64,000 nucleotides of DNA from the NCBI GenBank assembly GCA_947165005.1, contig CAMUYN010000004.1, forward strand, positions 1,927 to 65,926, in the 5' to 3' direction. The position numbers and the translations under genes were made by a program. The number at the start of each line of letters is the position of its first letter. Positions within the stretch are counted from its first letter, which is position 1. Under the pieces are notes generated by a model that saw only the letters and a list, made by a program, of their open reading frames with translations, did not search any database and was not told the DNA's origin. This DNA is from an uncultured Bacillota bacterium (GTDB lineage: Bacteria > Bacillota_I > Bacilli_A > RF39 > UBA660). Positions 8,533 to 51,511 of this stretch are shown here, piece after piece.

Positions 8533-8578
8533 TTAAAATACTATTTTCTTTTTTTATTTTCTAGTATAATAATACTAG

Positions 8579-9325: not shown

Positions 9326-9327
9326 AA

Positions 9328-9353
9328 ATGATTAATTTTAATCATTTTTTTTT
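9328..9353 (+). terminator. Rho-independent terminator
   Basis: Stem atgatta/taatcat followed by T9. Confidence 0.7.
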
Positions 9354-9364
9354 GCTCAAAAAAC

Positions 9365-9394
9365 TTGAAAAAATATACCATATAATGATACAAT
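9365..9394 (+). promoter_or_regulatory. Candidate sigma-A promoter of the giant-protein operon
   Basis: TTGAAA (9365..9370), an 18-nt spacer, then TACAAT (9389..9394). Confidence 0.3.
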
Positions 9395-9416
9395 TATAAA
9401 GAGAATAGGTGAGTGT

Positions 9417-14018: not shown

Positions 14019-14029
14019 AGAGGGATAAT

Positions 14030-14587: not shown

Positions 14588-14598
14588 AGGAGGGCTAT

Positions 14599-21761: not shown

Positions 21762-22415
21762 ATGGCTAAGAACAAAGTTAAAAAACTTGATAAAAAACAA
21801 ATAATATTCTTATGCGTAGTAGGGATAATAGTCATATTATCCTTACTAGTAATTATTTCTAGTTTGTTTGGAAATTTTGAAACAGTAAAATTAAAGAAAA
21901 ATAATAATGAAATATTTACTATTAAGGATTTAACAATCAATAATCTGAAATTCTTATCAACATCTGAAGAAGTTATAAATGAATTGGGATATCCAAAACA
22001 AACAAAGAAAGTAAAAAAAGGGAAATATAATTATATTGAATATTATTATAAGGGTTTAAAACTAACATTAAAAGAAAATTATAATGACTATGTTTTAACT
22101 GGTGCAGAAATAACATCAAGTAAATATAAGACTAGCAGAAATATAAAAGTAGGAAATAAAGTATTAAAAGTAATTGATAAATATAATGTTGAGAATGAGT
22201 CAGGTAATTATATTTATAAAAATTATACTATTGATGCTTTAAATGATAATTTAGTAAAAGATAATGCTTATTTTAGCTATAGAAATAGTAAAGAAATAAG
22301 ATATTATAATAAAGATGCTGTTATTGAAGGTAGTCCTACAAATCGTGCTGAATTAAGATTTAATTATAGATTTGGTAGAATTAATAAAATAACATGGTCT
22401 TATGATATTAATTAA
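21762..22415 (+). CDS. 217-aa membrane-anchored protein of unknown function (last gene of the operon)
   Basis: Starts 8 nt after the upstream stop with SD AAGGGA. N-terminal helix IIFLCVVGIIVILSLLVIISSLF. I recognise no motif. Confidence 0.7.
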   Translation: MAKNKVKKLDKKQIIFLCVVGIIVILSLLVIISSLFGNFETVKLKKNNNEIFTIKDLTINNLKFLSTSEEVINELGYPKQTKKVKKGKYNYIEYYYKGLKLTLKENYNDYVLTGAEITSSKYKTSRNIKVGNKVLKVIDKYNVENESGNYIYKNYTIDALNDNLVKDNAYFSYRNSKEIRYYNKDAVIEGSPTNRAELRFNYRFGRINKITWSYDIN

Positions 22416-33831: not shown

Positions 33832-34602
33832 ATGGCTATAAATAAAGTAGAAATAACAGGAATTAATACAACTAATTTACATACTATTAAATCAAAAGAA
33901 ATGGAGGAAATGTTTAAAGAATTAAAAAAAACTAATAATAAAGAAATAAGGGATAAATTAGTTATGGGAAATCTAAAATTAGTTCTAAGTATTTTGAAAA
34001 AATATAATAATAGAAATGAAAATTTAGATGATTTGTTTCAAATAGGATGTGTTGGTCTAGTAAAGGCAATAGATAATTTTGATCTTAGCTATGGTGTAAA
34101 GTTTTCAACATATTCAGTGTTGATGATAGAAGGTGAAATAAGAAAATATTTAAGAGATAATAATACTATTAGAATTTCTAGGAGTTTAAAAGAAAATGCA
34201 TATAAAATATTAAAATTTAAAAATGATTATATGGTTAATCATGGTAAAGAACCATCTGTTGATTTAATAAGTAAGGAATTAAATATAGAGAAAAAAGATC
34301 TATTATTATCATTAGAAGCGACAAAGTCTATTATTAGTTATTTTGATCCTATATATGATGATGGTGGTGAAACTATATATTTGTATGATCAGTTATCATC
34401 TAATGAAAATGATATTCTAGATGAGGTAATACTTAAAAATGCAGTGGAAGAATTAAAATCAAAGGAGAAGCAAGTATTTGTAGATAGATATATTAATGGT
34501 AAAACTCAGATTGAATTAAGTGAAGAATTAAATATATCTCAAGCACAAGTGTCTAGGATAGAAAAAAATGCATTAAAAAACATAAAAAAACTAATAAAAT
34601 AA
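33832..34602 (+). CDS. sigG: Sporulation sigma factor SigG
   Basis: NKVEITGINTTNL..., DDLFQIGCVGLVKAIDNFD, KFSTYSVLMIEGEIRKYLRDNNTIRISRSL, PIYDDGGETIYLYDQ, ISQAQVSRIEK. By recall it is closer to Bacillus SigG than to SigF. Confidence 0.85.
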   Translation: MAINKVEITGINTTNLHTIKSKEMEEMFKELKKTNNKEIRDKLVMGNLKLVLSILKKYNNRNENLDDLFQIGCVGLVKAIDNFDLSYGVKFSTYSVLMIEGEIRKYLRDNNTIRISRSLKENAYKILKFKNDYMVNHGKEPSVDLISKELNIEKKDLLLSLEATKSIISYFDPIYDDGGETIYLYDQLSSNENDILDEVILKNAVEELKSKEKQVFVDRYINGKTQIELSEELNISQAQVSRIEKNALKNIKKLIK

Positions 34603-34846: not shown

Positions 34847-34876
34847 TAATGTGCTATAATCATTATGGAGGTAACT

Positions 34877-35851
34877 ATGGAAAAAAATAAAAAACTGTTA
34901 TTAATATCTAGTATAGCAATGATTTTTTATGTTGTACCTAGTTTAATATTTACTCTTATAAATGGAATGGGTAATAATTTGTTTATAAAAATCTATAATA
35001 TTTCTATGTTTAGTTTATCAATAATAGGGATAATTTTATTCATGATTTATGCTTTTAGTAAAAAGAATATCAATAGAGGATTAGAATTTATAATATCAAT
35101 TATCTTTTTCCTAATGAATATTATTTCTGGAGTATTAGGTTTCATTTACTTTAAAAGAACAAGTACATATAAAATGAGGGAATTACCTAAATTAGAAATA
35201 TTATATAATCATAAAAAAATAGTATATATAATAGTATTTTTAATAAGTATGGTGTTTATATTTGTTATTCCAAGTATACTAGAGGGTAAAATTATTGGAA
35301 TAATACTAGATATTATTGTATTAGCAATGATGATTTTGATTTTTTATAAAGACTTAAAAAGAGATTTTAAGTATTTTAAAGAATACTTTAGAGAGTATAA
35401 TTCCTATGTCTTTAAAATGTTTGGAATATCTCTTGCAGTTATACTTGTATTATCTGTGTTTATAAGAATTTATACAGGTATTGATAATGCTACAAATCAA
35501 ACAAATTTGATGAAAACAATGGATAAAATGCCAATATACTTAGTTTTACTTGCCTGTGTTTATGCACCTTTTGTAGAAGAATTATTATTCAGAGGTTTAT
35601 TTAGAAAAATATTTAATAATAAATGGGTATTTATTATCGTATGTGGTGTAGTTTTCGGCGCATTACATGTTATTGATGATTTTCAAAGTATAAAAGAATT
35701 ATTATACATATTACTATATAGTTCACTTGGTATGTTTTTATCAGCAGTATACTATAAAACTAATAATTTGTTCTGTAATATTTATTTTCATATATTACAA
35801 AATTCATTAGCTCTAATAGGTATGATATTGTTAAAATTATTAGGTATGTAA
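34877..35851 (+). CDS. CPBP-family intramembrane glutamic endopeptidase (CAAX/Abi-like) with extended N-terminal multi-pass region
   Basis: Motifs EELLFRG, FGALH and HILQN in the C-terminal third, with about 8 hydrophobic helices. TGcTATAAT at 34849..34857. ATG 34877 follows GGAGGT. Confidence 0.8.
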   Translation: MEKNKKLLLISSIAMIFYVVPSLIFTLINGMGNNLFIKIYNISMFSLSIIGIILFMIYAFSKKNINRGLEFIISIIFFLMNIISGVLGFIYFKRTSTYKMRELPKLEILYNHKKIVYIIVFLISMVFIFVIPSILEGKIIGIILDIIVLAMMILIFYKDLKRDFKYFKEYFREYNSYVFKMFGISLAVILVLSVFIRIYTGIDNATNQTNLMKTMDKMPIYLVLLACVYAPFVEELLFRGLFRKIFNNKWVFIIVCGVVFGALHVIDDFQSIKELLYILLYSSLGMFLSAVYYKTNNLFCNIYFHILQNSLALIGMILLKLLGM

Positions 35852-35956: not shown

Positions 35957-38900
35957 ATGAAGAATTTTAGTAAGAAAAGAATTTTTGCTCTATTTGGATT
36001 TATGATGCTTGTAATAATTGCTACAGGCGTTTTTATAGTTTTTAAGTATGACAAATATAAAGGTTTAATTAACATTAAATCATCAGAACTAAAATTATTA
36101 TCTGATGTTTCATTAGCTACAAATATTCATGGTACTGATGAGGTCAATTATGAAGTTAAATATACATTAGACAAAATTGATGGAGTTAAAAAAAGAGATG
36201 TAGTTTTAAAGGGTGAACTAAAATCAGAGTATGCTAGATTCAAGGGTACTAATAATTCTAAAATAACTTCTGAAGTAACTAATGATGGCAAAAATATAGT
36301 AATGACTATTAAGGATGTACCACTTGGTAAAGAACAAACTGTTAAATTTAAAATAAATGTATTAAATGCACCAAATAAGGAAGAAATAAAACCAATAATT
36401 GATATAAAAGAATCAACTGGAGAATATGCAAGATTAGATACTGATACTTTAACTGTAGAAACTAATAGTGTTGAAGGCGTTGTATATGACGAAAATAATT
36501 TGAAAGTTAAAAATATTGAGTTAAGTATTCTTAAAGATGATAAAGAAGTAAAAAGAACTTATACTAATACAGAAGGCAGATTTATATTTAGTGATCTAGA
36601 AGAAGGAAACTATACAGTAAGAGTAGAAGAAGATATCTATGAATTATCATCTGATTCAAGAACAACAGAAAATAATGAAAATTTAATTTTAAAAGTTAAT
36701 GAAGCAGATAAATTCAATATAGAGATTCATAAATATATTAGTAATTTAAAACTAGTAGTTGATGGTAAAGAGAATAATTATTCTTATGATGATGTAGATA
36801 AAGTAGTTAGATCAATTAAAAAGTTTAACAATGTATCTGGTGAAATAGAATATAAATTAGTAGTAAAAAATAACAGTGATAAAAATACTAAGATAAAAGA
36901 ATTAGTAGATAGTTTAGGAGAAGGGCTATCATTTGATAAATCAAAAAATCCTGGATGGGAAGTAATAGATAACAAGATTAAATTTCTTCCGGTAGAAGAC
37001 GTTATATTATCTCCTTATGAAAAAAGAGAATATAAAATAACTATAGATATTGTAAATACTAAAGAGTTAAAAACTTATATTAATAAACTAACTACTAAGG
37101 GTGAAATTAATAACAAAGTAGTATTTATACTAGATGGCAAAGAAATAAGAAATATAAATGTTATCGAAGGAAATAAAATAACTAAACCTGAATTAGATAA
37201 AGAAATTATTTGGTATACAGACATAAATAAAACAAATCAATATAATTTTAATAATTCAGTTACTAAAGATTTAATATTATATGGGGATTATGTTAAAGAG
37301 GAACCAGATCCAGATCCAATTATTAATGTTTATACTGTAACATATTTGGATCAAGGTAATTTATTCTATGAAGAAGAAGTAGAAGAAAATAGTCATGCTG
37401 AAGGAATAACTGATATACCAGCAAAACCACATAATATATTTATTGGTTGGTATTTAAATGATTCATTATTTGACTTTGATACATTAATCGCTGAAGATAT
37501 AACTTTAGAAAGCAAATATGAAGAGGTTGAAGCACCATCAATCAATCGTACCCCAGATGGATGGACTAATAACGGTTTAATAGTTTCAATATCATCTGAT
37601 CATGACGATTATACATATATGTATAAAATAGGTGATGGTAATTATACTTTGTATACTGGACCATTTGCTTTAAACGAAAATGATACAATATATGCATATT
37701 CAATAAAGAATGGTATAACATCGTTAGAAACAACACTTGTTATAGACACTATTGATAAAATTAATCCAACTATAGTAGATAGTGAAATAACTAATATTAC
37801 ACCAATTAGTGCCAGATTAAATTTAAGTATACTTGATGAACAATCTGGATTAGATAAATATAGAGTATATATTGATAATGTATTAGTATTTGAATCATTA
37901 TCATATGTTACTAATCCAAACGATGAAAAGAATGAAACATATTTTATATCTAATTTAGATGAATTAAATACATATGTTATTAAATTAGAAGTAATAGATA
38001 AAGTAGGTAATAAAACTTCTTATGAGCATAATATAGATACACCTTCTAAACATTATGTAGCAAGAGTATTAAATTATAATTTAGAAGAAATACAAAAATT
38101 TGAATCATTAAATGAAGCAATTACTAGTGACTTATGTTTATCTAGCTGTTATATTGAAATGATTGATAATGTTATAGAAAGTAATATAATTGGGCAAAAT
38201 CAAAATATAACAATCGATCTAAATGGTAAAGTAATTACAGGTGAGAATAATTATGCACTTTATAATAATGGAAAATTAAATATAATTGATTTAAATGAAA
38301 ACTATGTAGGAAAAGTATATTCAGATAATATTGCTATTATCAATGATGGTACTTTGATAGTTGGTATAAATGAAGAAGAACCTGATGTATCAGATACACA
38401 ACCAATAATTGAAGGGAATACTTCTGGTATAAAAAATAACAGTATTTTAGATTATTATGATGGGCATATTATTGGTAATGTTCCAGTAGATGGACTTGTA
38501 ACTGAAACACCATTCTTACATAATACTCAAATAGTTGAAACTTCTGGTGGTAAACCAGAGACAAAATTAAATAAAGTTGCAGATGCTGTCGCTAGACTTA
38601 ATTCTGTTTATTATACTGAAGCACAAGCTGCTATTGATAAATCGCTAAAAGGTTATGAAGATGAAGTAGATTATACAAGACCTTTAATTGAACAATTAAG
38701 AAGTGATGATAACTATAGATTTATCTATGATGAAAAAGCACATTGCGTTGTTAATGATAATAAATATTCGAGTAATACATTAGCACATTCATATATTAAA
38801 CTTGATTTAACAAATTATACAGATAGTCAGATGCTAACTATTAATGCAGAAATAGATAATAATGGTAATTCATCTTCATATGGATATGTAACAATTACAG

Positions 38901-41900
38901 AAAGTATAGATACCCCTTTATATAATCAAACTGAAGGAAGATTAATATATATCAAAGGTAAAGTTTCAGCAAAAGATTATTCAACATTGCTTCAAAAAGG
39001 TAAAGTTTATTATATTCATATTGGATATAGAAAAGATAGTAATAATAGTGTTTCTACTGATACATTTAGGGTTAATAAAATTACTTTAGGTAATTTTGAG
39101 TCTGCTTCATTTTCTAATCTTGATGAAGTAATTATGTATAATGATTCATCCTATTACTTTGAAAAAGATGAAAATGATTACTATGTAAGTAATAATACAG
39201 GAATTCATTCTTCTACTGCTCATTCATATTTTGTTGTAGATTTAACAAATGTAAATGAAGATAAATACATAGTAATGAATGCAAAAATTTCTTCACAAAG
39301 CAGTGATTATGGATATATTACAGTAAATAATAATATTAACTTACCACCAGTTACAAATTCTGCTGGTAGACAAGTATATATAAGCGGAGAGCAAACTAAC
39401 AAACAATATATTATAAAATTATATAGGAATCAAATAAATGTAGTTCATTTATGTTACTATAAAAATGGAAATACTAATACTGGAGAAGATAAATTTACAA
39501 TCACATCTATTACACCATATGCTAACAATGCTGGATATTATGATGATGTTGAAATGGTTAATAATGGTACTTATTATTTTGAAAGACAAGAAGATGGAAG
39601 TTATAAAAATAATAATAAAGGTGTTAAGAGTAGTGTAGCTAATTCATATATGTTATTTGATTTAACAAATGAATTAGAAGATTTAGTAGTAACCATTGAT
39701 GTTACTATCAGTAGTGAAAATTCTGATAAAGGGTATATAACTATTACAGATAATCCAATTGCACCATTATATAGTTCGGCTACTGGAAGAATATATTTTT
39801 CGGGAGGTAATACTACTACTACAGTTCTTCAAACTACATTAAGTGCAGGTAAAAAGAATTATATTCATTTTGGATATAGAAAAGATAGTTCAATTGATTC
39901 TTATAATGATGAATTTACAATAAATTCATTAAAGATTCTTAATCCATGTACTATGGATAATATAGATTTTATAACAACGAAGACTGATAATCATTCTAGC
40001 AGTGAAACAATACCAGTATTAAATCAAAAGGTTGAAACAGTAGAACTTGTAAAAGATGTAACATTATCACAACCACTTGAAATTGTTAGTACAAGAGATG
40101 TTATTTTAGATTTAAATGGTAAGTCTTTAACTACATCAGCTGAAAGTGAAGTTATTAACAATAAAGGAAGTTTAAAAATAATAGATACTGATTTTGATAG
40201 AAGAAAAACTATTAATATCGAATACAAAACAGAACAAGCAAGATTATTTGAACAAGCAAGAGAAAAGTATTTAGCTGATGTAGAAGAATATGAAGAATAT
40301 GCCGGATTATGCGATGGATGTGAACCAAGTGAAGAATATTTGGTTGATCAGACAATAAAACAAGAAATAGAATATAGTGGTGGTGAATTTGTATATACTC
40401 CGCATTATACTGGTAGTTATAAACTAGAAGTATGGGGTGCTCAAGGTGGCTCTGCAACTTATAATAATACAACTGCAACTGGTGGATATGGCGGATATTC
40501 TAAAGGCATAGTTACACTAACTGAAGGTGCACCAATATACATTAATGTTGGAGGACAAGGTGTTAATAACTCAGATGGAGATGCTCCTGGCGGATATAAT
40601 GGAGGGGGAGCATGTTCTAAAGATAACTATGGTATTGGAGGATCTGGTGGGGGAGCTACTCATGTTGCTACAAAGTCAGGTTTACTTTCAACATTAAATA
40701 ATGATGTAGACAAAATCTTAATTGTTGCTGGTGGAGGAGCCGGTAGTGGAAGAGAGTATTCTAACCGTTCAGCCATTGGTGGTAATGGTGGAGGCTTTGA
40801 AGGAAATAAAGGTATAAACTCAAAGGATAATCCTGGAATAGGAGGAACACAAACTTCTGGTGGTGCCTTTGGTAAAGGACCAGACTACGGTGGCTGGTAT
40901 GCATCACCTGGTGGTGGATTCTACGGAGGAACTGCAGGCTGCGGAAGTGGTGGTGGTTCTGGTTATATTGGTAATCAATTGTTAACCGATAAAGAAATGA
41001 ACTGCTACGAATGTAAAGAATCTAATGAGGAATCTACAAAGACTGTATCAAATACATGTGTTAATGATGATCCTATAGAAAATTGTTCAAAGATAGGTAA
41101 TGGCTATGCTAAAATATCGATGGTATTAACTGACGAAGAGATAGAAGAAATGAAGAAGAATTTACCTAAAACCTATAACATTAAAACAATGCCTGTGTTT
41201 AAAGATTATTTAACTGAAATTGATTTTGATGATTCAATTGATATTGATGAAATAACAGTTGATTCAGAAGTTAGTTATAATAATAAAGTTGAAGAGAGCG
41301 TACAAGGTAATGTTTATAGTACAACATATAGTGTTATTTTAAATAATTATGGTGCATACTTAAATATCGAAAGTGGTAATGTAACATTAGATAAATCAGG
41401 ATATTACCATGCAATCAATAACAAGGGTAAATTAACACTAGGTGAAAATGCATATGTTAAAGCATTACAAAAAAATAATAGAGGTATATATAATAATGAA
41501 TCTGGAGATATTTTAGATGGATCAGGAACAATAACTACTGAAGGAGCAGATAGCATTGGTATATTAAATGACTCTGTTAATGATGACAAGATTAAAGGGT
41601 ACACTATTAAGAACACGCAAAGTACATCATATAATTTTTATAATCAAAATTATCATGTATTAGAATTAGATGGAATAACTACTAGTGGACCTGGTACTGA
41701 TATATATCAAAATGCAGATAGTGATTTAACAATTAAAAATAGTAAGCTTGGTAGTAATAATAGTAATAGTTATTCATTCTATTCTAATGAATCAAGCATA
41801 GAAAGCATTATTACATTTAATAATTGTAATGTATTAAATGAAATAAGGAATAGGCAAAATTCATATAGAAAAATAAATATAATTAATTCAAGCTTAATAT

Positions 41901-44900
41901 CTACAAGTAATAAGAAAAATATCTATAACTATAATGGAGAGATAACATTAAATAATACAATTATAATTAATAGATCAAATAATGTAAGCAGTATTGATAA
42001 TAATTCACGTTATAGACCTAACGGTTGGGCTGCACCAGTACCTTCAATTGAAAATTATGGTATTATTAATATTTCTGGTGGTTCAATTAATACAGAAGTT
42101 GCTAAAAATAGTAATTATTCTTTTATAGGTATAGCTAATCTTACCGGTGGAACAGTCAATATAAATGGGACATTTGAAATAAAGGATTCTCATGATAATG
42201 GTATTTTAAACTATGGAACTTTAACACTTGGTAATAATTCTGATTCAGTTACTTTAAATCCAATAATTAAAGGTAAAACAAGTGCAATATATAATGCTGT
42301 TTCTTCAACATTTAATTATTATGATGGAACATTAGTTGGTTCGTTATCAAAAACTCTTGATGGAATAGTAACTAGTATCCCAGATAATTATGATTTATAT
42401 GTTACAGCAGAAGATAATAAAGAAACAATAGTCTTAAAATCTTATATAGATATGATTGCTGATGAAGAATATGTTGCTGCAATAGGTATGGATAAATATG
42501 TATCAATCCAAAGTGCTATTGATTCAGTTAGTGAATCAAATAATCCTACTGAAATTACATTATTAAGAAATATCGAAACCGCAGTTAATAATAATATTCC
42601 GATTGGTAAAAACATTTCTGTTAATCAGAAGAATCATTTTATTAAATCACATAATACTAGTTCATGCTTTACTAATAATGGAACATTTGAATTAACTGAT
42701 GATACTAATAATCCAAATTATGAAAATATAACTTTTAGTAATTTGATAATAAATAATGGAACAGCAAACTATAGCAATATTAAATCCAAGATTATAACAA
42801 CTAACAAAATTATTCATAATAGTGCTGGAGCAACTATGAATATTTCTAATGGAGAAATATATTCGACAATGTATAAAATAATAAGTAATTCTGGATATAT
42901 GAATATAATTGATACCAAGATGAGTGGGAATGCATATAGTACTTCTCAGCAAGATTTACTTATTAATAATTCTAACGGATCTATGGTTTTAACAAGATGT
43001 GATATAAAATATACATATAGAGGACCTACAATTTCAAATTATGGAAATTTAGAAATTTATGATTCAACAGCATTATTAACTGGAGATTTTAGTGCTACAA
43101 CAGTATTTGTATATAATGCATCAAGTGGTTATACTAAGATCGAAGGCGGTAACTATGGTGCCTCAAATTCTAGTAATAATAAAAAAGGGACATTAATTTC
43201 TAATGCTTCAGGAGAATCATTATTAAAAAATGTTACATCTAATTTTAATAGAATTGCATATGTATCTGGTGGAACAACAAATATTCAAAACGGTACTTAT
43301 AATTGTGCAGGAACAAAAACAATTGAAACTGCTGGAGGAACAATAAATATTACTGGTGCTGCAATCAATAATTCATCTGGTGGCGGAGGCAATGACGGAT
43401 TAATATATACTACAAAAACTAGTACTATTAATATTACTAATACAAATATAAACCAAACAAGTTCAAATACATCTAATGATTATTTGATTTATCCAATTGG
43501 TTCTGATAACGAATCTGTTATTACAATTACAAATAGTACATTAATTTCTAATTATTACACTGTTTATTTGGCATCAGGTAGTAATGCAAATATAACACTA
43601 GATATAATATCAGGGACATTGAAATCTAATAATAAAAATGCAATATATATAGTAAGTGGCACACCAACAATTAATATAGGTGTAAAGGATGGAGATGTAA
43701 GTACTCAAAATCCTCAAATAATTGGTAAAACATATGGAATATATAATGGTGTAACTAACACTACTATTAATTTCTATGATGGAGTAATAAGTGGTGAAAC
43801 AGCTATATATGGTAAAATGTCAGAATTTGAAGATGGATATGATATAGTCTTAAATACAGTAGATAATATAGAGTATAAAACACTAGGTCTATTACCATTG
43901 ATAAAGAATATAGATAAAGATACAACGCATTATACACTTTATGATGCACTTGATAAAGCAAGTAATAATGATAGATTAGAATTACTAAGAGAATATACAT
44001 CATCACCAGCAGTTTCTGTAGTAGAAAATAATAAGATATTAACACTTGATTTAAAAGGACATAAAATACAGCAAAATAATACTAATTTATTAATAAATAA
44101 TGGCACTTTAACAATTAAATCTACTGAAGATGGAGGAATGATTGAATCAAATTCAAGTGAAGCAATTATTAATAATGGAACATTAAATATCGAAAGCGGT
44201 AAATTTAATCAAACTACAACTAACTATATATTAAAGAATAATGAAGGTGCTACATTAAATATTAATGATGGAGATATAAGTACAACTAAAACTAGAGCGA
44301 TAGATAATTATGGATATTTAAATGTTAACTCTGGTAATATTTATTCTACTGATAATAATATATCTATGGGTGATTCGACAATAAGCTTAATTAAGAATTC
44401 ATCAACTGGTGAAATTGTGTTAGATGGTGGAACAATTACTTATTCTGGTAGAGGATCAGCCATAAATAATTCTGGTACAGTAGAATCAAATAATCCTACA
44501 GTAAATTTATATGGTTATACATCTGGATGGGTTTCTTTAACTCCATATATTACTAATAATTCATCAGGATATGTAGAAATCACAGGTGGTAATTATGGTA
44601 AAACAGCAAATAATGGAATATTAATAGTAAATGCTGGAGAGGCAGAAGTTACTAATGCAGATAGTGATTTACAGAAATTATTAACCAATACAGGAACATT
44701 AACTGTAACTGGTGGTGATTATACCTTTGGTTATAAGTATCTTAATGGGAATCGCCATTATATAATAGCTTCTGGTGGAACACTTGATCTAAGTAATATA
44801 AAAATAACATTTGAAAATACGGGTACAAGCAATACATTCGGTGATTATATTATAATCTATAATGATGCTGAAGTAACAATTACTAATTCTATAATTAAAA

Positions 44901-47353
44901 ATGAATCCGGTACAAGAATAGACAGAATAATATATCAATATGGTACATCTAAGCTAGATATCATTAATAGTAGTATACTTGCAAATACAGAAATACCAGC
45001 AATAGAATTAAAAGATTCTTGCATAACAAATGTTATTTCTGGTGAAGTTAGTAGTAGTCTAGATATTGGAATTAAAGTAGCAGGTTCAGCACAATTAACA
45101 ATCGGTACACATGATTATAATGTAAGCACAGCAGATCCTATAATATCAGGAAAGACATATGGGTTATATAATTCTTCTACATCATCAACAGTTAATTTCT
45201 ATGATGGAGTAATAAGTGGTGAGACGGCTATATATGGTAAAATTTCAGTAGTAGAAGATGAATATGATATAGTTCTAAATAAAGTAGATAATGTAGAGCA
45301 TAAAACACTAGGTCTATTACCATTAATAGAAAATATTGATAAAAATACAACTCATTATACTTTGAAGGATGCAATTGATAAAGCAAGTAATAATGATAGA
45401 TTAGAATTATTAAGAGAATATACATCATCACCAATAGTAGAAACAGTAGAAAATAATAAGATATTAACACTTGATTTAAAAGGACATAAAATACAACAAA
45501 ATAATGCTAATTTATTAATAAATAATGGTACTTTAACGGTAAAAACTTCAATTGATGGAGGAAGGATAGAATCAAATTCAGGTGCAATATTTGTAAATAA
45601 TGGAACACTTACTATTGAAAATGGTAAATATACTCAAACAACTTCAAATTATGTGATTACAAATAATGTAGGAGCAACATTTAATATTACAGGAGGAGAA
45701 ATCTCTGTTCCTAAAGAAAATTCTATTAATAATTCAGGAATATTAAATATTAGTGATGCAAAAGTATATGCTACTTCTAATAGCTCATATACAACTCTTA
45801 TTAATAATACTGCTGATGGAGAAATAGTCATAAATAGAGGAGAATTTATTGATTTTACTTATAATAGAATAATAGATAATGCTGGAAGAGTGGAAGCGAA
45901 TAATTGTATCGTTGATATTGGACATAGCGCTTTAAATGAATCAAATGGTACATTTATAAGAAATACATCAAGTAATAGTTATGCAAAAATTAATGGTGGA
46001 ACATTTGGAGCAATCCTAGATGTAGCAGCTCATAGAGGTCTAATACTAACTAATGAAGCAGGTACTGCGGATATTACTGGTTTTATTGATAATTATTTTG
46101 ATAAGTATTCAACTGAAAGCGGTTCCTATAGTGGAATTTTGGTAGGTGGTGGAACAGTTAATATTACTAATGCTACTATTAATCAATATAAAAATAATAT
46201 TCCTATTTATGCAAATGGAACTGCTACAATAAATATATCAAATAGTAATATTAATCTTGGTAATACTGAATGCATTTCACTAAATGATTATTCTACAGCA
46301 AATATACTTTCAGGAACCATTAAATCTGATTTTACATATGCAATTACAATAAATGGTAATTCTAGTAAACATCCTACATTAAATATAGGTACTTTAGGAG
46401 GAACAGTTTCAACTAGTGATCCAATTATTCAAGGTAAAACATTTAGTATATTTAATAAAGATAATCAAGGTAGAGTTTATTTCTATGATGGTATATTAAG
46501 AGGTGAAACAGGTGTTATATCTGGTGCAATTACTGATTATGAACCTGGTTATAAAGAAGATAGGTATCAATATACTGACCCAGAAACAAGTATTAATTAT
46601 TATGAATCAAAATTAACTGTAATAAGTGATGATATAAGGGCAATATCTGTTGGAAATATAAATTTTGAATCTATTCAATCTGCAGTTAATTATGCAGTAA
46701 GTAATAATATTTCTAGAATCGATTTATATCATGATATAGAATTATCTAGTGATCTTATTAAACCTTCTGGAATAAATGTAGATATATATTTAAATAATTA
46801 TCAAATTATTACAGGTAGTTATACTATAGATTCTGGTATAAATCTTATAAGTGGTAACAATGAACCAAATAATAATTTAGGAGCAAGTATATTAAAACCT
46901 AAATATCATACTGAAAATATCGTTATTTATGAACTTGAAGATGGAAGTGAATTAGATACTACTAATACTTATAATCTATATAAATTAGTTCAAAGTAATT
47001 ATGATATTGTTAGAGTTAATGAAAATAGAATAGGTAATTATGATATAGGAAAAGATATAAAAGAATTAAGAACTGTAAATGGAAGAATTTACATCAATAA
47101 TTTATCTGAAGGCACTTATAAATTAGTAAGTTCATCTAATAAAGAAATTACTTTTGATGTATTATCTAATGGTGTAAGTTCTAATGTAAGAGTAAATGAT
47201 AAAGTAACTATTAATAGAATAGTGTCTGTTATAGCTACAGTTATATTACAAATACAAACAGGTAATAATAAATCTATATATCTATTACTAATTTTGTTAA
47301 TAATCATTGTTATTCTTGGTTTAACAGCAATAAAAAGACATAAGAGAATATAA
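35957..47353 (+). CDS. 3798-aa mosaic surface protein with N-terminal signal-anchor, a glycine-rich (ALK/LTK-type) domain, five beta-helix-like modules and a C-terminal QIQTG sorting signal
   Basis: A single uninterrupted 11,397-nt ORF with SD AGAGGA. N-terminus KKRIFALFGFMMLVIIATGVFIV. Domains are listed as sub-features. Confidence 0.9.
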   Translation: MKNFSKKRIFALFGFMMLVIIATGVFIVFKYDKYKGLINIKSSELKLLSDVSLATNIHGTDEVNYEVKYTLDKIDGVKKRDVVLKGELKSEYARFKGTNNSKITSEVTNDGKNIVMTIKDVPLGKEQTVKFKINVLNAPNKEEIKPIIDIKESTGEYARLDTDTLTVETNSVEGVVYDENNLKVKNIELSILKDDKEVKRTYTNTEGRFIFSDLEEGNYTVRVEEDIYELSSDSRTTENNENLILKVNEADKFNIEIHKYISNLKLVVDGKENNYSYDDVDKVVRSIKKFNNVSGEIEYKLVVKNNSDKNTKIKELVDSLGEGLSFDKSKNPGWEVIDNKIKFLPVEDVILSPYEKREYKITIDIVNTKELKTYINKLTTKGEINNKVVFILDGKEIRNINVIEGNKITKPELDKEIIWYTDINKTNQYNFNNSVTKDLILYGDYVKEEPDPDPIINVYTVTYLDQGNLFYEEEVEENSHAEGITDIPAKPHNIFIGWYLNDSLFDFDTLIAEDITLESKYEEVEAPSINRTPDGWTNNGLIVSISSDHDDYTYMYKIGDGNYTLYTGPFALNENDTIYAYSIKNGITSLETTLVIDTIDKINPTIVDSEITNITPISARLNLSILDEQSGLDKYRVYIDNVLVFESLSYVTNPNDEKNETYFISNLDELNTYVIKLEVIDKVGNKTSYEHNIDTPSKHYVARVLNYNLEEIQKFESLNEAITSDLCLSSCYIEMIDNVIESNIIGQNQNITIDLNGKVITGENNYALYNNGKLNIIDLNENYVGKVYSDNIAIINDGTLIVGINEEEPDVSDTQPIIEGNTSGIKNNSILDYYDGHIIGNVPVDGLVTETPFLHNTQIVETSGGKPETKLNKVADAVARLNSVYYTEAQAAIDKSLKGYEDEVDYTRPLIEQLRSDDNYRFIYDEKAHCVVNDNKYSSNTLAHSYIKLDLTNYTDSQMLTINAEIDNNGNSSSYGYVTITESIDTPLYNQTEGRLIYIKGKVSAKDYSTLLQKGKVYYIHIGYRKDSNNSVSTDTFRVNKITLGNFESASFSNLDEVIMYNDSSYYFEKDENDYYVSNNTGIHSSTAHSYFVVDLTNVNEDKYIVMNAKISSQSSDYGYITVNNNINLPPVTNSAGRQVYISGEQTNKQYIIKLYRNQINVVHLCYYKNGNTNTGEDKFTITSITPYANNAGYYDDVEMVNNGTYYFERQEDGSYKNNNKGVKSSVANSYMLFDLTNELEDLVVTIDVTISSENSDKGYITITDNPIAPLYSSATGRIYFSGGNTTTTVLQTTLSAGKKNYIHFGYRKDSSIDSYNDEFTINSLKILNPCTMDNIDFITTKTDNHSSSETIPVLNQKVETVELVKDVTLSQPLEIVSTRDVILDLNGKSLTTSAESEVINNKGSLKIIDTDFDRRKTINIEYKTEQARLFEQAREKYLADVEEYEEYAGLCDGCEPSEEYLVDQTIKQEIEYSGGEFVYTPHYTGSYKLEVWGAQGGSATYNNTTATGGYGGYSKGIVTLTEGAPIYINVGGQGVNNSDGDAPGGYNGGGACSKDNYGIGGSGGGATHVATKSGLLSTLNNDVDKILIVAGGGAGSGREYSNRSAIGGNGGGFEGNKGINSKDNPGIGGTQTSGGAFGKGPDYGGWYASPGGGFYGGTAGCGSGGGSGYIGNQLLTDKEMNCYECKESNEESTKTVSNTCVNDDPIENCSKIGNGYAKISMVLTDEEIEEMKKNLPKTYNIKTMPVFKDYLTEIDFDDSIDIDEITVDSEVSYNNKVEESVQGNVYSTTYSVILNNYGAYLNIESGNVTLDKSGYYHAINNKGKLTLGENAYVKALQKNNRGIYNNESGDILDGSGTITTEGADSIGILNDSVNDDKIKGYTIKNTQSTSYNFYNQNYHVLELDGITTSGPGTDIYQNADSDLTIKNSKLGSNNSNSYSFYSNESSIESIITFNNCNVLNEIRNRQNSYRKINIINSSLISTSNKKNIYNYNGEITLNNTIIINRSNNVSSIDNNSRYRPNGWAAPVPSIENYGIINISGGSINTEVAKNSNYSFIGIANLTGGTVNINGTFEIKDSHDNGILNYGTLTLGNNSDSVTLNPIIKGKTSAIYNAVSSTFNYYDGTLVGSLSKTLDGIVTSIPDNYDLYVTAEDNKETIVLKSYIDMIADEEYVAAIGMDKYVSIQSAIDSVSESNNPTEITLLRNIETAVNNNIPIGKNISVNQKNHFIKSHNTSSCFTNNGTFELTDDTNNPNYENITFSNLIINNGTANYSNIKSKIITTNKIIHNSAGATMNISNGEIYSTMYKIISNSGYMNIIDTKMSGNAYSTSQQDLLINNSNGSMVLTRCDIKYTYRGPTISNYGNLEIYDSTALLTGDFSATTVFVYNASSGYTKIEGGNYGASNSSNNKKGTLISNASGESLLKNVTSNFNRIAYVSGGTTNIQNGTYNCAGTKTIETAGGTINITGAAINNSSGGGGNDGLIYTTKTSTINITNTNINQTSSNTSNDYLIYPIGSDNESVITITNSTLISNYYTVYLASGSNANITLDIISGTLKSNNKNAIYIVSGTPTINIGVKDGDVSTQNPQIIGKTYGIYNGVTNTTINFYDGVISGETAIYGKMSEFEDGYDIVLNTVDNIEYKTLGLLPLIKNIDKDTTHYTLYDALDKASNNDRLELLREYTSSPAVSVVENNKILTLDLKGHKIQQNNTNLLINNGTLTIKSTEDGGMIESNSSEAIINNGTLNIESGKFNQTTTNYILKNNEGATLNINDGDISTTKTRAIDNYGYLNVNSGNIYSTDNNISMGDSTISLIKNSSTGEIVLDGGTITYSGRGSAINNSGTVESNNPTVNLYGYTSGWVSLTPYITNNSSGYVEITGGNYGKTANNGILIVNAGEAEVTNADSDLQKLLTNTGTLTVTGGDYTFGYKYLNGNRHYIIASGGTLDLSNIKITFENTGTSNTFGDYIIIYNDAEVTITNSIIKNESGTRIDRIIYQYGTSKLDIINSSILANTEIPAIELKDSCITNVISGEVSSSLDIGIKVAGSAQLTIGTHDYNVSTADPIISGKTYGLYNSSTSSTVNFYDGVISGETAIYGKISVVEDEYDIVLNKVDNVEHKTLGLLPLIENIDKNTTHYTLKDAIDKASNNDRLELLREYTSSPIVETVENNKILTLDLKGHKIQQNNANLLINNGTLTVKTSIDGGRIESNSGAIFVNNGTLTIENGKYTQTTSNYVITNNVGATFNITGGEISVPKENSINNSGILNISDAKVYATSNSSYTTLINNTADGEIVINRGEFIDFTYNRIIDNAGRVEANNCIVDIGHSALNESNGTFIRNTSSNSYAKINGGTFGAILDVAAHRGLILTNEAGTADITGFIDNYFDKYSTESGSYSGILVGGGTVNITNATINQYKNNIPIYANGTATINISNSNINLGNTECISLNDYSTANILSGTIKSDFTYAITINGNSSKHPTLNIGTLGGTVSTSDPIIQGKTFSIFNKDNQGRVYFYDGILRGETGVISGAITDYEPGYKEDRYQYTDPETSINYYESKLTVISDDIRAISVGNINFESIQSAVNYAVSNNISRIDLYHDIELSSDLIKPSGINVDIYLNNYQIITGSYTIDSGINLISGNNEPNNNLGASILKPKYHTENIVIYELEDGSELDTTNTYNLYKLVQSNYDIVRVNENRIGNYDIGKDIKELRTVNGRIYINNLSEGTYKLVSSSNKEITFDVLSNGVSSNVRVNDKVTINRIVSVIATVILQIQTGNNKSIYLLLILLIIIVILGLTAIKRHKRI
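36470..36646 (+). other. Carboxypeptidase-regulatory/Cna-B-like beta-sandwich domain
   Basis: VEGVVYDENNLKVKNIELSILKDDKEVKRTYTNTEGRFIFSDLEEGNYTVRVEEDIYEL. Confidence 0.6.
37115..37519 (+). other. Two Listeria-Bacteroides repeat (Flg_new-type) units
   Basis: VVFILDGKEIRNINVIEGNKITKP...WYTDINKTNQYNFNNSVTKDLILYGDY, and YTVTYLDQGNLFYEEEVEENSHAE...PHNIFIGWYLNDSLFDFDTLIAEDITLESKY. Confidence 0.65.
38714..39943 (+). repeat. Three tandem copies of an unassigned ~140-146-aa domain
   Basis: Copies start at about 38714, 39152 and 39572. Shared pattern: Y-[YF]-F-E...S-x-A-[HN]-SY...DLTN...[IV]-x-A-x-I-S-S...D-x-GY-[IV]-T-[IV]...GR...Y-[IY]-H-[IFL]-[GC]-Y-[RY]-K-[DN]...D-x-F-x-[IV]. Confidence 0.75.
40364..41128 (+). 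other. Glycine-rich domain of the Gly_rich/ALK-LTK GRD type
   Basis: EIEYSGGEFVYTPHYTGSYKLEVWGAQGG...TGGYGGYSKG...IYINVGGQG...PGGYNGGG...GGSGGGATHV...ILIVAGGGAGSG...GGNGGGFEG...GGGFYGG...GSGGGSGYIG...GNGYAKISMV. The local G+C is visibly higher because of GGN codons. Confidence 0.75.
43772..44105 (+). repeat. Intragenic DNA repeat, copy 1
   Basis: Aligns without indels to 45197..45530. My hand count gives about 37 mismatches in about 345 nt. The offset is exactly 1425 nt. Confidence 0.85.
45197..45530 (+). repeat. Intragenic DNA repeat, copy 2
   Basis: See copy 1. It encodes FYDGVISGETAIYGK...LGLLPLI.NIDK.TTHYTL.DA.DKASNNDRLELLREYTSSP...ENNKILTLDLKGHKIQQNN.NLLINNGTLT. Confidence 0.85.
47249..47353 (+). 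other. C-terminal sorting-signal-like tail: QIQTG + hydrophobic helix + KRHKRI
   Basis: Sequence QIQTGNNKSIYLLLILLIIIVILGLTAIKRHKRI-stop. Confidence 0.65.
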
Positions 47354-47376: not shown

Positions 47377-47406
47377 AAAACAAGAGTTTAATATAACTCT
47401 TGTTTT
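47377..47406. terminator. Bidirectional terminator between convergent genes
   Basis: 12-bp stem aaaacaagagtt/aactcttgtttt, loop taatat. It overlaps the stop of the minus-strand lipoprotein gene. Confidence 0.7.
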
Positions 47407-48248
47407 AATTTATCAATATTATCATTCATTATAGAAATATAATTTTTACCATCATTTTTATCTTCTGTAGTTATATTATTAATTGGATCAATATATAATA
47501 CTTCTAATTCACTATTTTCTTCTTTTAATTTTTTTGTATATTCGTTTTCTTCATCACCAGATAAGATATATATATATTTTACTTCTCCATCAGTAACTAA
47601 ATTTTTAGCATCATTATATATTTTATCTGTTATTGATTTTTCATCTATTGAAGTAATATTTAAACCATATTTTGATAAGAATGTTAGTTCATTATTTTGA
47701 ACAATTATATCTTTATTAGAGGCATTTTCAGCCATTTCTTTTAGTTCAACATCTAAGTTTGAAATACTTATTTTTAACGTTTCATAGTTATCATCAATTT
47801 TTTTATCTAAGTTTTCAGAAGAAACATATTCTTTTAATCCTTCTTTTATATTTCTTGCGACCATTAATACATTTGATGGATTTATCCAAACTTCATCTTC
47901 TGAATACTTATATTCTATTCTGTTAGTGGAATCTATTATTCTTAATTTTCTATTATCATTAACCATAGTAACTATGTATTCTTTTTCTTTACCAAGACCA
48001 TTATATATAACTAAATCACTGTTACCATAATCTTTTATTTGTTTATTAGTTAATTTATAATCATATGGATTAATTCCTTGAGGATACATATTATTTATAG
48101 TAGAATAATTTCCATATAATTCACTCGTAACATACTCAATTGGATAAACACTAGTATATATAGTAATATTTTCCATAGAGTCAGTAGAACATCCAGTTAA
48201 TAAGAATAAACCTATTAATAATATTATAAAACTAATTTTCTTTTTCAT
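47388..48248 (-). CDS. Lipoprotein of the ZnuA/TroA-type solute-binding fold with substituted metal ligands
   Basis: Lipobox LFLLTGC. ZnuA-like blocks are present (YPIEYV...GINPYDYKLT...SDLVIYNGLGKE, EVWINPSN, TFLSKYGL), but the usual His positions read Y, E/V and N. Strong SD AAGGAGGAA. Confidence 0.6.
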   Translation of the reverse strand: MKKKISFIILLIGLFLLTGCSTDSMENITIYTSVYPIEYVTSELYGNYSTINNMYPQGINPYDYKLTNKQIKDYGNSDLVIYNGLGKEKEYIVTMVNDNRKLRIIDSTNRIEYKYSEDEVWINPSNVLMVARNIKEGLKEYVSSENLDKKIDDNYETLKISISNLDVELKEMAENASNKDIIVQNNELTFLSKYGLNITSIDEKSITDKIYNDAKNLVTDGEVKYIYILSGDEENEYTKKLKEENSELEVLYIDPINNITTEDKNDGKNYISIMNDNIDKLKQELY

Positions 48249-48583: not shown

Positions 48584-49483
48584 ATGAATTGTAAAAATTG
48601 TGGTTTCCCATTAACAAATGACAATAAAACATGTCCTAGTTGTGGGACATTAAATGAAAATTATATAGAAAAAGAGGTTTTAGAAACACCAGTAGAGCAA
48701 GTTAAGGAGCAATCTTCATTTGATGATATATTTACACCTAATAATACTGTAGTAACTGAAGAGGTATCTGCTTATAAAGAACCAAAGAAAAAGAATACGG
48801 CATTAATTGTTATTCTTATTATTGTAGGATTATTAGTATTAGGATTAGGAGTATTTTTTTCAATCCGTTTTTTAGTAGGTAGAATAGGTACATTAACACC
48901 AACTACAGTAACACCTAGTAAACAAACAACTAATAATCAAACAACTAATACTAGTAGTAATAAGGATAAAGGTAAGAGATCAAATGTGAAAGTATATGTA
49001 GTTTTTGATAATATGACTATTGATGAAATAGTGGATAATATTTTTAAATTACAAAATATTTCTGCTGGTGAAAGTGCGTATTATTTTACAGATAGATTTA
49101 TATTGCCAGAAAATGCTTATATTTTATCAAATAAAGAACATAAATTTGGAACTAATCCTAGATGGAGTTTTGTTACATATTCAAAAGAAGGATACATGAC
49201 ACAAGTTTTACTTCAAGATATAAAAGAGGAAGACGATGGAACAATAACCTTTAGTAGGGGTGCTTATATAGATCCTTATATGCATTTTGCTGATTTAGAA
49301 AAAGCAGAAGAAGTCTATAAAGCATTATATGATAAATATAAATTAATGGGTACTATTGTAAAAGAAAGCAATCATGATAATGGAATGAGCACAAAAATAG
49401 AAATTGGTGGAGAAACTTATATGCTAGGTTTATATCATCACAATAATATTAAGCAAGTGCATATACAATTACCAATAGAATAA
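48584..49483 (+). CDS. Zinc-ribbon / single-pass membrane protein, unknown extracytoplasmic domain
   Basis: MNCKNCGFPL...CPSCG, helix ALIVILIIVGLLVLGLGVFFSI, T/N-rich linker, then a ~170-aa C-terminal domain. Confidence 0.7.
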   Translation: MNCKNCGFPLTNDNKTCPSCGTLNENYIEKEVLETPVEQVKEQSSFDDIFTPNNTVVTEEVSAYKEPKKKNTALIVILIIVGLLVLGLGVFFSIRFLVGRIGTLTPTTVTPSKQTTNNQTTNTSSNKDKGKRSNVKVYVVFDNMTIDEIVDNIFKLQNISAGESAYYFTDRFILPENAYILSNKEHKFGTNPRWSFVTYSKEGYMTQVLLQDIKEEDDGTITFSRGAYIDPYMHFADLEKAEEVYKALYDKYKLMGTIVKESNHDNGMSTKIEIGGETYMLGLYHHNNIKQVHIQLPIE

Positions 49484-49495
49484 TAGGAGAAAAAT

Positions 49496-50653
49496 ATGAA
49501 TTGTAAAAATTGTAATAGCTCTTTAGAAGAAGGAACAACATTTTGTCCAAACTGTGGGCAAGCAGTTAATGAAGAAATAGTAGAGGAAGTAACTAATGCA
49601 GCAACTACTGTTAATAATACTTCATTTAGCGAGAAGAAAAATAATAAAGCACCTTTAATAATAGGTATTATAGCAGGATGTTTAATTATTTTAGGTATAC
49701 TAATATTAGTTGCTATAAAATTTGTTATGCCTATTTTTAATAATAAATCATCTAGTGATAATAAACCTGAAACTAAAACCGAAGCAGTCAAAACAATTGA
49801 ATTGGATGAATATACATTTACATTGCCAGAAGGTTTTTCAGTATTGGAACCAAACGGTGTAAAAGTTGTTGGTAATGAGAATTTCTATTTTGTTTTAGAT
49901 AATGCAAGAATATCTGAATCAACTTATGATGATTTATTAGGAACAAAATATTATATTGCATTAGAATTATCTAAGACTTTAAAAGATATGAATTATATTA
50001 GTGCAGATGAAGAAATACATAATGGACAAAAATATTTAATATTTAGATTTTCATATACTCAAAGTGGAGAAACTTATTATTATGATTGCACATATACAGA
50101 ATTACCTGATGGTGCAGTATTAATAATGTGCATTGATTATATTCCTAATTATAAATCAACTGGTTATAATACACTAAGTACATTTATAAAATCAGCAAAA
50201 TCTAAAAAATCAGATACAAAAATAGGTAATGATACAGTTATAGGAAGTACAGAACTTGGATATTTAAAATTACCTGGAACATGGTATAGATTTTATGATA
50301 CAACAGGAAATAAATCAGGATTACAATATACTAAAGATTCTATATGGATAGTTAGTATTGATACTATTGATGTTTCATCTACTAGTACTGCAGAATTACT
50401 TGGTAAAACTGCAATTTATAGTATGAAATATGGTGATAATCCTGCAACTAAAGCAGAAGGTGCTAAGATTAAAGTTGCGGGTTATGATGGATATCAAGCT
50501 TATGGTTATTATGCAAGTGAAAACAAATATTTAGTGGAATGGTTCTTTGAACCAGGTGATGGTAAAGTACATTATATTAGTGTTGAAGGTCCAGATGCTT
50601 CATCAGACAATTTTAAAATTCCTGATACATTCTCACTTACAAAAATAAATTAG
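49496..50653 (+). CDS. Zinc-ribbon / single-pass membrane protein (paralogous N-terminus), unknown extracytoplasmic domain
   Basis: MNCKNCNSSL...CPNCG, helix PLIIGIIAGCLIILGILILVAI, then a ~290-aa C-terminal region. Confidence 0.7.
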   Translation: MNCKNCNSSLEEGTTFCPNCGQAVNEEIVEEVTNAATTVNNTSFSEKKNNKAPLIIGIIAGCLIILGILILVAIKFVMPIFNNKSSSDNKPETKTEAVKTIELDEYTFTLPEGFSVLEPNGVKVVGNENFYFVLDNARISESTYDDLLGTKYYIALELSKTLKDMNYISADEEIHNGQKYLIFRFSYTQSGETYYYDCTYTELPDGAVLIMCIDYIPNYKSTGYNTLSTFIKSAKSKKSDTKIGNDTVIGSTELGYLKLPGTWYRFYDTTGNKSGLQYTKDSIWIVSIDTIDVSSTSTAELLGKTAIYSMKYGDNPATKAEGAKIKVAGYDGYQAYGYYASENKYLVEWFFEPGDGKVHYISVEGPDASSDNFKIPDTFSLTKIN

Positions 50654-50677: not shown

Positions 50678-50710
50678 ATATAATTGATATGTTTGATTGG
50701 AGGAAGTATT

Positions 50711-51511
50711 ATGATAGAAAAAGTAAATCCATCTCATCCAGATAAGATTGCCGATAGAATATCTGGTGCTATAGTAGATTTATCTTATATAAAAGATGAA
50801 AACCCAAAAATAGCAGTAGAAGTATTAATAGGTCATAAAGAATGTAATATTATTATAGAGAGTAATGTTTCTTTTACTGAAGAAGAAGTATCTAATATAG
50901 TAAGAAGAATAACAAAACAAGACGATATAAGTATTAATTTAAAACAAGTTCCACAAGATGTAGAACTAGCTAAAAATCAGAAGGAAGAATTGAGATGTGG
51001 AGATAATGGTATATTTAAAGGTGTTCCATTAACTAGTAATGAAAAAGAACTATCTAAAATAGTAAGAGATATTTATAAAATAAAGGATACTGATGGAAAA
51101 TACATTTTAACTGATGATAAATTAATTGTTTGTCAAAGTAATATGACAAATGAGGAACTAAGAAATTTACTAGGAAATATAAGAAAAGAAGTAATTATTA
51201 ATCCACTTGGTGAATGGACTGGTGGAACAGATGTAGATACTGGTGCTACTAATAGAAAATTAGGTAGTGATATGGGTCATAGTGTAACTGGTGGTGGATT
51301 ACATGGTAAAGATTTATCTAAAGCAGATGTAAGCATTAATATATATGTATTCAAAAAAGCACAAGAATTAGGTAAGGAAGTAGAATTATGCTGTGCTATT
51401 GGAGATAGATATGTAGATGGTAAACCATATAATGAAATAGTAAATGAAGCTAGAGAATATATAAATGAGTTAGGTGGCTTTGAAAAATTTGCTGAATGGG
51501 GATTATATTAA
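50711..51511 (+). CDS. Compact (266-aa) S-adenosylmethionine synthetase (MetK)-like protein
   Basis: SHPDKIADRISGAIVD (compare GHPDKxxDQISDAxLD), CGDNGIF (compare GAGDQGLMFG), INPLGEW..GGTDVDTGATNRKLGSDMGH..TGGGLHGKDLSKADVS (compare INPTGRFVIGGPxGDxGLTGRKIIVDTYGG..HGGGAFSGKDPSKVDRS). ATG 50711 follows GGAGGAAG. Confidence 0.65.
   Translation: MIEKVNPSHPDKIADRISGAIVDLSYIKDENPKIAVEVLIGHKECNIIIESNVSFTEEEVSNIVRRITKQDDISINLKQVPQDVELAKNQKEELRCGDNGIFKGVPLTSNEKELSKIVRDIYKIKDTDGKYILTDDKLIVCQSNMTNEELRNLLGNIRKEVIINPLGEWTGGTDVDTGATNRKLGSDMGHSVTGGGLHGKDLSKADVSINIYVFKKAQELGKEVELCCAIGDRYVDGKPYNEIVNEAREYINELGGFEKFAEWGLY

Follow-up and report, generated by a model that had tools for sequence, protein, structure and literature searches.

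An ALK/LTK-type glycine-rich domain carried as a cassette within a giant, predicted extracellular protein of an uncultured gut-type Bacillota bacterium

Here we describe an ALK/LTK-type glycine-rich domain (GRD) encoded within a giant gene of an uncultured Bacillota bacterium of the UBA660 lineage. The gene lies in a stretch of 64,000 nt of contig CAMUYN010000004.1 (assembly GCA_947165005.1, positions 1,927 to 65,926); this whole stretch is called the window, coordinates are those of the window unless another locus is named, and the giant gene and all its parts lie on the + strand. A previous reading of the sequence alone had singled out the block at 40364-41128 as kin to the glycine-rich domain of vertebrate ALK/LTK, and had proposed that it is a folded display or binding module held far from the wall, rather than a disordered linker. 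Our analysis establishes or strongly supports that this block is part of a folded ALK/LTK-type domain, that it is mounted as a cassette on a repetitive stalk and that it belongs to an extracellular family of varying copy number. In particular, we are highly confident that residues 1466-1724 adopt the fold of the ALK/LTK ligand-binding region, a TNF-like beta-sandwich joined to a glycine-rich domain. The explanation that best accommodates all these observations, an ALK/LTK-type domain inserted as a cassette and working as a loop-presenting binding head, is one that we favour with reasonable though far from full confidence.

The identity of the domain is clear at the sequence level. The translation of 40364-41128 quoted in the sequence-only reading, from YTGSYKLEVWGAQGG to GSGGGSGYIG and on to CYECKES...CVNDDPIENC, was reproduced exactly, and corresponds to residues 1470-1724 of a single uninterrupted open reading frame (ORF; 35957-47353) of 3798 aa. 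This ORF is real and not an assembly artefact, since a near-identical protein (3795 of 3798 residues, 99.9%) is recorded from a second assembly. In Pfam-A, the protein matches PF12810 at E=1.4e-32, in one continuous match to model positions 7-242 of 243 that takes in conserved non-Gly residues and scores 114.1 bits for the 3798-aa protein and 122 bits for the fragment, the cutoff being 24.5. A significant match of about residues 1470-1724 to this family, then called Gly_rich and now named ALK_LTK_GRD, had been anticipated from sequence, with the correct accession. Within the Pfam envelope (40409-41122, aa 1485-1722), Gly makes up 25.6% of the residues, compared with 7.2% in the remainder of the protein, and a scan of all six frames for the motifs of the block revealed that it is unique in the window. 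The match is not an effect of composition: a hidden Markov model (HMM) built from 85 homologues, the query being excluded, scored the real sequence at 314 bits, whereas 500 residue shuffles scored -15 bits or less. Among PDB sequences the family profile recovered ALK and LTK only (Caenorhabditis elegans SCD-2, 7lir, at 1.8e-7; human ALK near 1e-3); a single-domain phmmer search of the same sequences gave no match. By every feature of PF12810 that could be checked, the domain is a member of that family.

The predicted structure leads to the same result. The AlphaFold2 (AF2) model of aa 1460-1735, computed from an alignment of 86 sequences, has a mean pLDDT of 94.7 and a pTM of 0.92, and shows a TNF-like beta-sandwich with a glycine-rich subdomain. 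When this model was compared with the PDB using Foldseek, the top 21 matches were all ALK/LTK ligand-binding fragments (E 4e-9 to 9e-7, probability 1.00). Because of this confidence and these matches, the segment is to be regarded as a folded domain and not as a linker, and the claims of folding and of kinship with the vertebrate domain, made at first from sequence alone, are both borne out. We place the complete domain at 40352-41128 (aa 1466-1724), on the basis of the Pfam match, the AF2 model, the Foldseek matches and the shuffle control. Its approximately 15 Gly runs are assigned by DSSP to neither helix nor strand, with mean pLDDT values of 92-98 in blocks of 10 residues. Ranking after ALK/LTK were the tail tip of mycobacteriophage Bxb1 (9d93_Qb, E=1.8e-3) and the fibre of cyanophage Pam3 (7yfw_a, E=0.16), both weak matches.

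The resemblance to the animal receptors is confined to this domain. The TG region of ALK/LTK (PDB 7nx1, 7nx3, 7mzy, 7lrz, 7n00 and 7lir) belongs to the same family, matched here over nearly the whole model, and the number of Gly runs in the window protein is close to the 14 polyglycine-II segments listed for ALK (PMC13243192). ALK/LTK receptors, however, also have EGF-like, transmembrane and kinase parts, whereas no Pfam match to EGF, kinase, MAM or LDLa domains was found in the 3798-aa protein, which shares the GRD only and is not an ALK-family receptor. A four-cysteine cap ahead of the last strand is, by comparison with ALK/LTK, a conserved feature of the bacterial clade's own. To our knowledge, the ALKAL cytokine ligand of ALK/LTK does not exist in bacteria.

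The GRD is set into a protein of repetitive architecture. After an N-terminal export segment (a basic and hydrophobic stretch, MKNFSKKRIFALFGFMMLVIIATGVFIVF, at 35957-36052, which from its sequence is a putative signal peptide or signal anchor) come CarboxypepD_reg-like and Flg_new domains recognised by Pfam, a first beta-helix-like module, three repeats of ~145 aa (aa 914-1340), four more beta-helix-like modules, and finally LQIQTG, a hydrophobic stretch and a KRHKRI tail. All the modules open with the same type of rung ("LDLNGK...INNGTL.I"), and in modules 1, 3, 4 and 5 this motif continues directly into the next rung, with no insert. In module 2, the first rungs (DVILDLNGKSLTTSAESEVINNKGSLKIIDTD, 40079-40192, aa 1375-1412) are followed by an acidic, putatively helical linker with a CDGC pair (40193-40351, aa 1413-1465), the GRD itself, and a second acidic linker that leads back to the module (41129-41326, aa 1725-1790, with a helix at aa 1726-1734 in the model), after which the remainder of the module resumes at YSVILNNYGAYLNIESGNV (41327-42526) and aligns with modules 3-5. 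This order identifies the GRD as an insertion cassette in a stalk module. Modules 3-5 (42254-46561) are internal repeats of ~475 aa, 30-72% identical and each closed by a conserved ...FYDG... cap. The beta-helix-like modules match no Pfam family, but an AF2 model of one of them (pLDDT 73) has short strands throughout, and its top 50 Foldseek matches are all parallel beta-helix proteins, including tailspikes, polygalacturonases, pertactin, PfbA and Ag43; the best E value is 5.8e-3 and none is at or below 1e-3, so the beta-helix assignment is a tentative one. Giant beta-helix adhesins such as the phage tailspikes, pertactin, PfbA and Ag43 are likewise built from repeated short-strand modules, with the caveat that these fold matches are weak; a GRD cassette inside a beta-helix module is a feature of the window protein and not of them.

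Both ends of the protein carry putative signals for export or anchoring. The putative C-terminal sorting-like signal (47246-47350) has LQIQTG, not the LPXTG of sortase-anchored proteins, followed by a hydrophobic stretch and a KRHKRI tail; no Pfam or NCBIfam match to a sortase was found among the window ORFs examined. A signal of the form [LI]-x-IQTG is present in both giant surface proteins of the window (LQIQTGNN...KRHKRI here, and INIQTGK...KKRK at 21649-21750, in ORF 14599-21753), and a 5802-aa GRD protein from an unrelated sample (P0288) ends in LSIQTG...KRKSTE. Directly upstream of the giant gene, 34865-35851 (+) encodes a CPBP/CAAX-type intramembrane glutamic protease, with weak, sub-cutoff similarity to MrtS and MrtJ of C-terminal sorting systems; judging by this resemblance, it may process the IQTG signal. 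The prepilin motif (G-F-T-L-x-E; PF07963) is absent from the N-terminus, which reads MKNFSKKRIFALFGF... and gives no PF07963 match. The three tandem ~145-aa repeats (38696-39976) are 32-37% identical, have no Pfam match and follow the pattern 'YYFE.DE...Y..NN.G..SS.AHSY..LDLTN...GYITI....P.....GR.Y..G....F.I..I'; they may be a binding domain that has yet to be characterised.

Within the GRD, conservation and variability are sharply partitioned. Across 784 unique domains, Gly accounts for 23 of the 34 most conserved columns, while six indel-prone segments lying between Gly runs have a mean entropy of 3.38 bits, compared with 1.49 bits for the remaining columns. These segments are loop 1 (SATYNNTTAT, aa 1499-1508, 40451-40480; 3.48 bits, occupancy 0.75), loop 2 (VNNSDGDAP, aa 1536-1544, 40562-40588; 3.63 bits, with insertions in homologues), loop 3 (ACSKDNYGI, aa 1552-1560, 40610-40636; 3.53 bits), loop 4 (REYSNRSAI, aa 1599-1607, 40751-40777; 3.68 bits, with indels), loop 5 (GNKGINSKDNPGI, aa 1616-1628, 40802-40840; 3.27 bits, with indels) and loop 6 (GPDYGGWYAS, aa 1641-1650, 40877-40906; 2.80 bits). 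The cap (C1683, C1686, C1701 and C1710; 41003-41086) lies inside the Pfam envelope, and its four cysteines are invariant or nearly so in the alignment (A1). Among 742 domains, the cap patterns were CCCC in 499, CCxx in 154, xxxx in 51, xxCC in nine and odd combinations in 29. This pairwise gain and loss points, at the level of sequence, to two independent pairs, and the cap is therefore most likely a structural clamp with two disulfides, C1683-C1686 and C1701-C1710. A single Cys4 zinc site was considered and judged less likely, since 154 of the 742 domains keep the CxxC pair alone and nine the second pair alone.

The window protein is one member of a large family. A scan of 1.84 billion cluster representatives returned 4561 proteins at E<=1e-3, of which 1951 reach E<=1e-10 and 576 reach E<=1e-30. 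Many of the proteins are 2000-7235 aa long with 2-11 matched stretches; GRDs embedded in giant proteins are thus common in the family and not peculiar to this locus. In contigs taken as one genome per species, at least 470 loci encode relatives, nearly all of them titled as metagenome-assembled genomes of uncultured Bacilli, Tenericutes or Firmicutes whose sources are the guts of humans, ruminants and other hosts. Among the 78 loci kept, there are several genomes with 3-5 loci each. The typical relative is a protein of 280-480 aa with one C-terminal GRD, although many have two copies and some three to seven. At their N-termini, relatives carry a type IV prepilin motif (14 of the 120 closest homologues; one, P0106, is recorded as a 'prepilin-type N-terminal cleavage/methylation domain-containing protein') or SipW/camelysin-like signals; dockerin-like repeats or an IQTG signal are found at C-termini, and Ig-like and Flg_new domains in other fusions. 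The GRDs of these small proteins are 40-58% identical to that of the window, share its cysteine cap and come from the same group of organisms; they stand, however, at the C-terminus of proteins of 280-450 aa, whereas here the GRD is internal to 3798 aa. The most extensive pilin arrangement is in Bacilli bacterium RGIG7548 (L045, a 1.04-Mb contig), where seven consecutive prepilin-GRD genes occupy 7566-16196. Each gene of this array encodes a prepilin N-terminus (KGFTLVEL), a pilin body of ~150 aa and a C-terminal GRD, some GRDs having the four-cysteine cap and others ending in another variant of the C-terminus; the array is preceded, ~4.5 kb upstream, by two sigma-70-like genes.

The architecture of the giant is also found elsewhere. 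Clostridium sp. CAG:433 (L041, FR893551.1) encodes a protein in which N-terminal region, first rung, helical linker, GRD and beta-helix follow one another as they do in the window giant. Its N-terminal 1400 aa are 38-41% identical to that giant, and its equivalent linker has no Cys pair. Its GRD cap keeps the CxxC pair, both later cysteines being Asn. The CAG:433 gene is frameshifted at an A5 run (GTAATAAAAACAGTGG, L041 7785-7812) immediately ahead of the helical linker and GRD; the frameshift might reflect an error of sequencing, a pseudogene or a switch prone to slippage. The number of GRD cassettes is one, two or five in giants that share this N-terminus: two, together with the IQTG signal, in P0288 and five in the P0241 family. 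These relationships were assessed by local BLAST against the fetched loci and proteins, on which orthology rests because homology searches were uninformative beyond the GRD: a query of the GRD plus flanks gave GRD-level matches only (33-53% coverage), and a flank-only query scored nothing, probably since N-rich words saturate the word index.

The same fold recurs in viruses. A search of BFVD gave 105 predicted viral structures at E<=1e-3, with tail-fibre or virion annotations on some of them, and PHROG families 7388, 5811 and 1589, to which no function is assigned, match at 1e-25 to 1e-29. Many of the phage and giant-virus proteins with this fold carry the UniProt name 'receptor protein-tyrosine kinase', which looks like an automatic name transferred from the ALK domain, since the proteins themselves resemble tail-fibre or virion proteins rather than kinases. 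In viral contigs just 23 distant, partial relatives were found, none with the cysteine cap. In Pam3 gp24 (PDB 7yfw), the receptor is recognised at a tip made of a TNF-like and a glycine-rich domain, where six loops each carry two glycine-rich motifs (PMC9608196). The predicted fold of the GRD combines the same two kinds of domain, also seen at the Bxb1 tail tip (9d93), but the phage tips are trimeric fibres that require a chaperone, whereas the GRD sits as an insertion inside a cellular protein. In the adhesin gp38 of Salmonella phage S16 (PDB 6F45), a polyglycine-II lattice presents hypervariable receptor-binding loops (PMC9608196, PMC13243192), a principle that we propose is shared with the GRD, although the neighbour of the gp38 lattice is a beta-helix and not a TNF-like sandwich (PMC9608196); gp38 was not recovered in our sequence and structure searches with the GRD.

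Taken together, these observations suggest how the protein would work. The conserved Gly runs would pack as a rigid scaffold that fixes the positions of the six hypervariable loops, and the domain would act as a binding head that sets specificity, its ligand coming from the host, from dietary glycans or from a neighbouring cell. Its stalk would be provided by the beta-helix modules and its clamp by the cysteine cap, the carrier being a predicted extracellular protein of 3798 aa with an N-terminal export segment and a putative C-terminal sorting-like anchor. An extracellular binding role is argued for by the pilin, SipW and anchor fusions, the prepilin-GRD array, the varying copy number, the entropy of the loops, the matches to viral tail fibres and the analogy with Pam3. 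On this evidence we lean, by a little, towards a binding head with the loops as its ligand-binding surface.

Several points weigh against this reading. The Foldseek superpositions on ALK/LTK have TM-scores of 0.38-0.47, which are moderate, at 17-21% identity, and the polyglycine-II geometry of the Gly runs is predicted from homology, with indirect evidence from the DSSP assignment and high pLDDT of these runs. The entropy contrast of the loops is descriptive and carries no test, because the alignment on which they were chosen was much like the one scored. Furthermore, strong conservation extends to the cap and to many non-Gly positions, and part of the surface is therefore not diversifying. 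Finally, our literature search found no paper on bacterial members of PF12810, in agreement with the earlier statement that their function is unreported: its sole mention of the family concerned a fungus, in which the domain was described as without known function, and a paper on TANB77 pilins (PMC11680825) has a subject other than the GRD.

Other explanations were weighed against the binding head. A purely structural role, in which the glycine lattice stiffens the stalk as a strut or stabilises it as a knob, binds nothing itself and leaves ligands to other parts (for instance, the three ~145-aa repeats or grooves of the beta-helix), would fit the strong conservation of scaffold and cap, and the serial stacking of GRD copies in many giants, in the manner of many spacer domains. 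We hold it to be unlikely, because in most relatives the GRD, at the C-terminal tip, is the only globular part beyond the pilin or anchor segment, because the loops are the most variable part of the domain and because the same fold is a binding element in ALK and in phage Pam3 (PMC9608196). Self-association is a further idea: through its TNF-like sandwich, the GRD would form oligomers or pair with its counterpart on an adjacent cell, leading to aggregation or biofilm. TNF-like domains frequently trimerise. Pam3 gp24 is a trimer (PMC9608196), and the stalk modules weakly match the fold of autoaggregation adhesins such as Ag43; here, however, the GRD is inserted once, inside a stalk module that is monomeric, and a homophilic interface is poorly compatible with hypervariable loops, which makes this second idea distinctly improbable. 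Although the fold is common among phage proteins, it is very improbable that the gene encodes the tail fibre of a prophage, or is a fragment recently derived from a phage, instead of encoding a cellular surface protein: its neighbours are housekeeping genes (aspS, gatA/B, relA/spoT, rnc, mraY, ftsW and others), the viral-contig matches are few and partial, and the gene has putative cellular export and anchoring signals; a prophage origin is therefore rejected. That the region is a disordered, low-complexity Gly linker matched by Pfam through composition alone, as its Gly content and the empty phmmer search against PDB might suggest, is refuted practically beyond doubt by the near-whole Pfam match including non-Gly residues, the AF2 confidence and the shuffle control.

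The window gives further information on the organism that carries the binding-head candidate. Its housekeeping proteins share 50-61% identity with their counterparts on the loci of relatives, its GC content is ~26%, and it encodes a Mur ligase, Ddl, a penicillin-binding protein (PBP), MraY, FtsW, YkuD and a Coat F protein, from which we conclude that the organism is a walled, low-GC Firmicute of the same broad group as those relatives. Other genes of the neighbourhood include a sigma factor, znuA and an smc-like gene. The sigma factor, of the sigma-70 family (33832-34602, +), lies one gene upstream of the protease, and has homologues on five of the 78 fetched GRD loci. The second giant surface protein (14599-21753, +; 2384 aa) has three SpaA (prealbumin-like) domains and many cysteine-rich stretches in addition to its IQTG signal, and accounts for a local rise in GC at 16-18 kb; beside it are small ORFs without family assignment (14030-14587 and 21762-22415), and upstream is a 1533-aa SdrD_B protein (9417-14018) with no IQTG-type anchor. 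Downstream of the GRD gene, two adjacent paralogues (48584-49483 and 49496-50653, +) begin with a zinc ribbon (MNCKNCG/N...CP.CG) followed by a membrane segment, and a ZnuA-family zinc-binding protein (47388-48248, -) is encoded divergently between the giant gene and this pair. A 275-aa ORF (50684-51511, +) has a weak partial match to metK in its N-terminal ~70 residues (46.6 bits, against a cutoff of 309) and may encode a MetK that is truncated or has diverged strongly.

The domain is already catalogued in Pfam, and the locus adds a member to its family and not a new kind of domain. What is new at the locus is a cassette inside a beta-helix-like module, with the same layout in CAG:433 and related giants of one, two or five copies; at the level of the family, it is the pilin fusions, the tandem arrays, the multi-copy giants, the six hypervariable loops and the paired cap cysteines. 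This family-level picture, although a by-product, is more interesting than the locus itself. It lends itself to a wider proposal, which we regard as speculative and rather doubtful as a whole: uncultured gut Bacilli with small genomes would have in GRD cassettes their main repertoire of diversifying adhesins, displayed at the tips of type IV pilins, on small anchored proteins and, as 1 to ~11 copies, within giant beta-helix proteins; the lattice would be a scaffold for the display of loops, in common with the tips of phage tail fibres; and the metazoan ALK/LTK ligand-binding domain would be a domesticated descendant of that prokaryotic and phage adhesin fold.

For uncultured gut Bacilli we know of no cultured models, nor of proteins by which they interact with their hosts. 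Our results provide for them a map of where this domain occurs, from pilin tips and small anchored proteins to giant beta-helix proteins, and the predicted 259-aa cysteine-clamped domain is a tractable fragment that could be expressed to give the family its first structure, and its first ligand, from bacteria. They also raise the possibility that the ligand-binding module of ALK/LTK may have had a prokaryotic or phage source.

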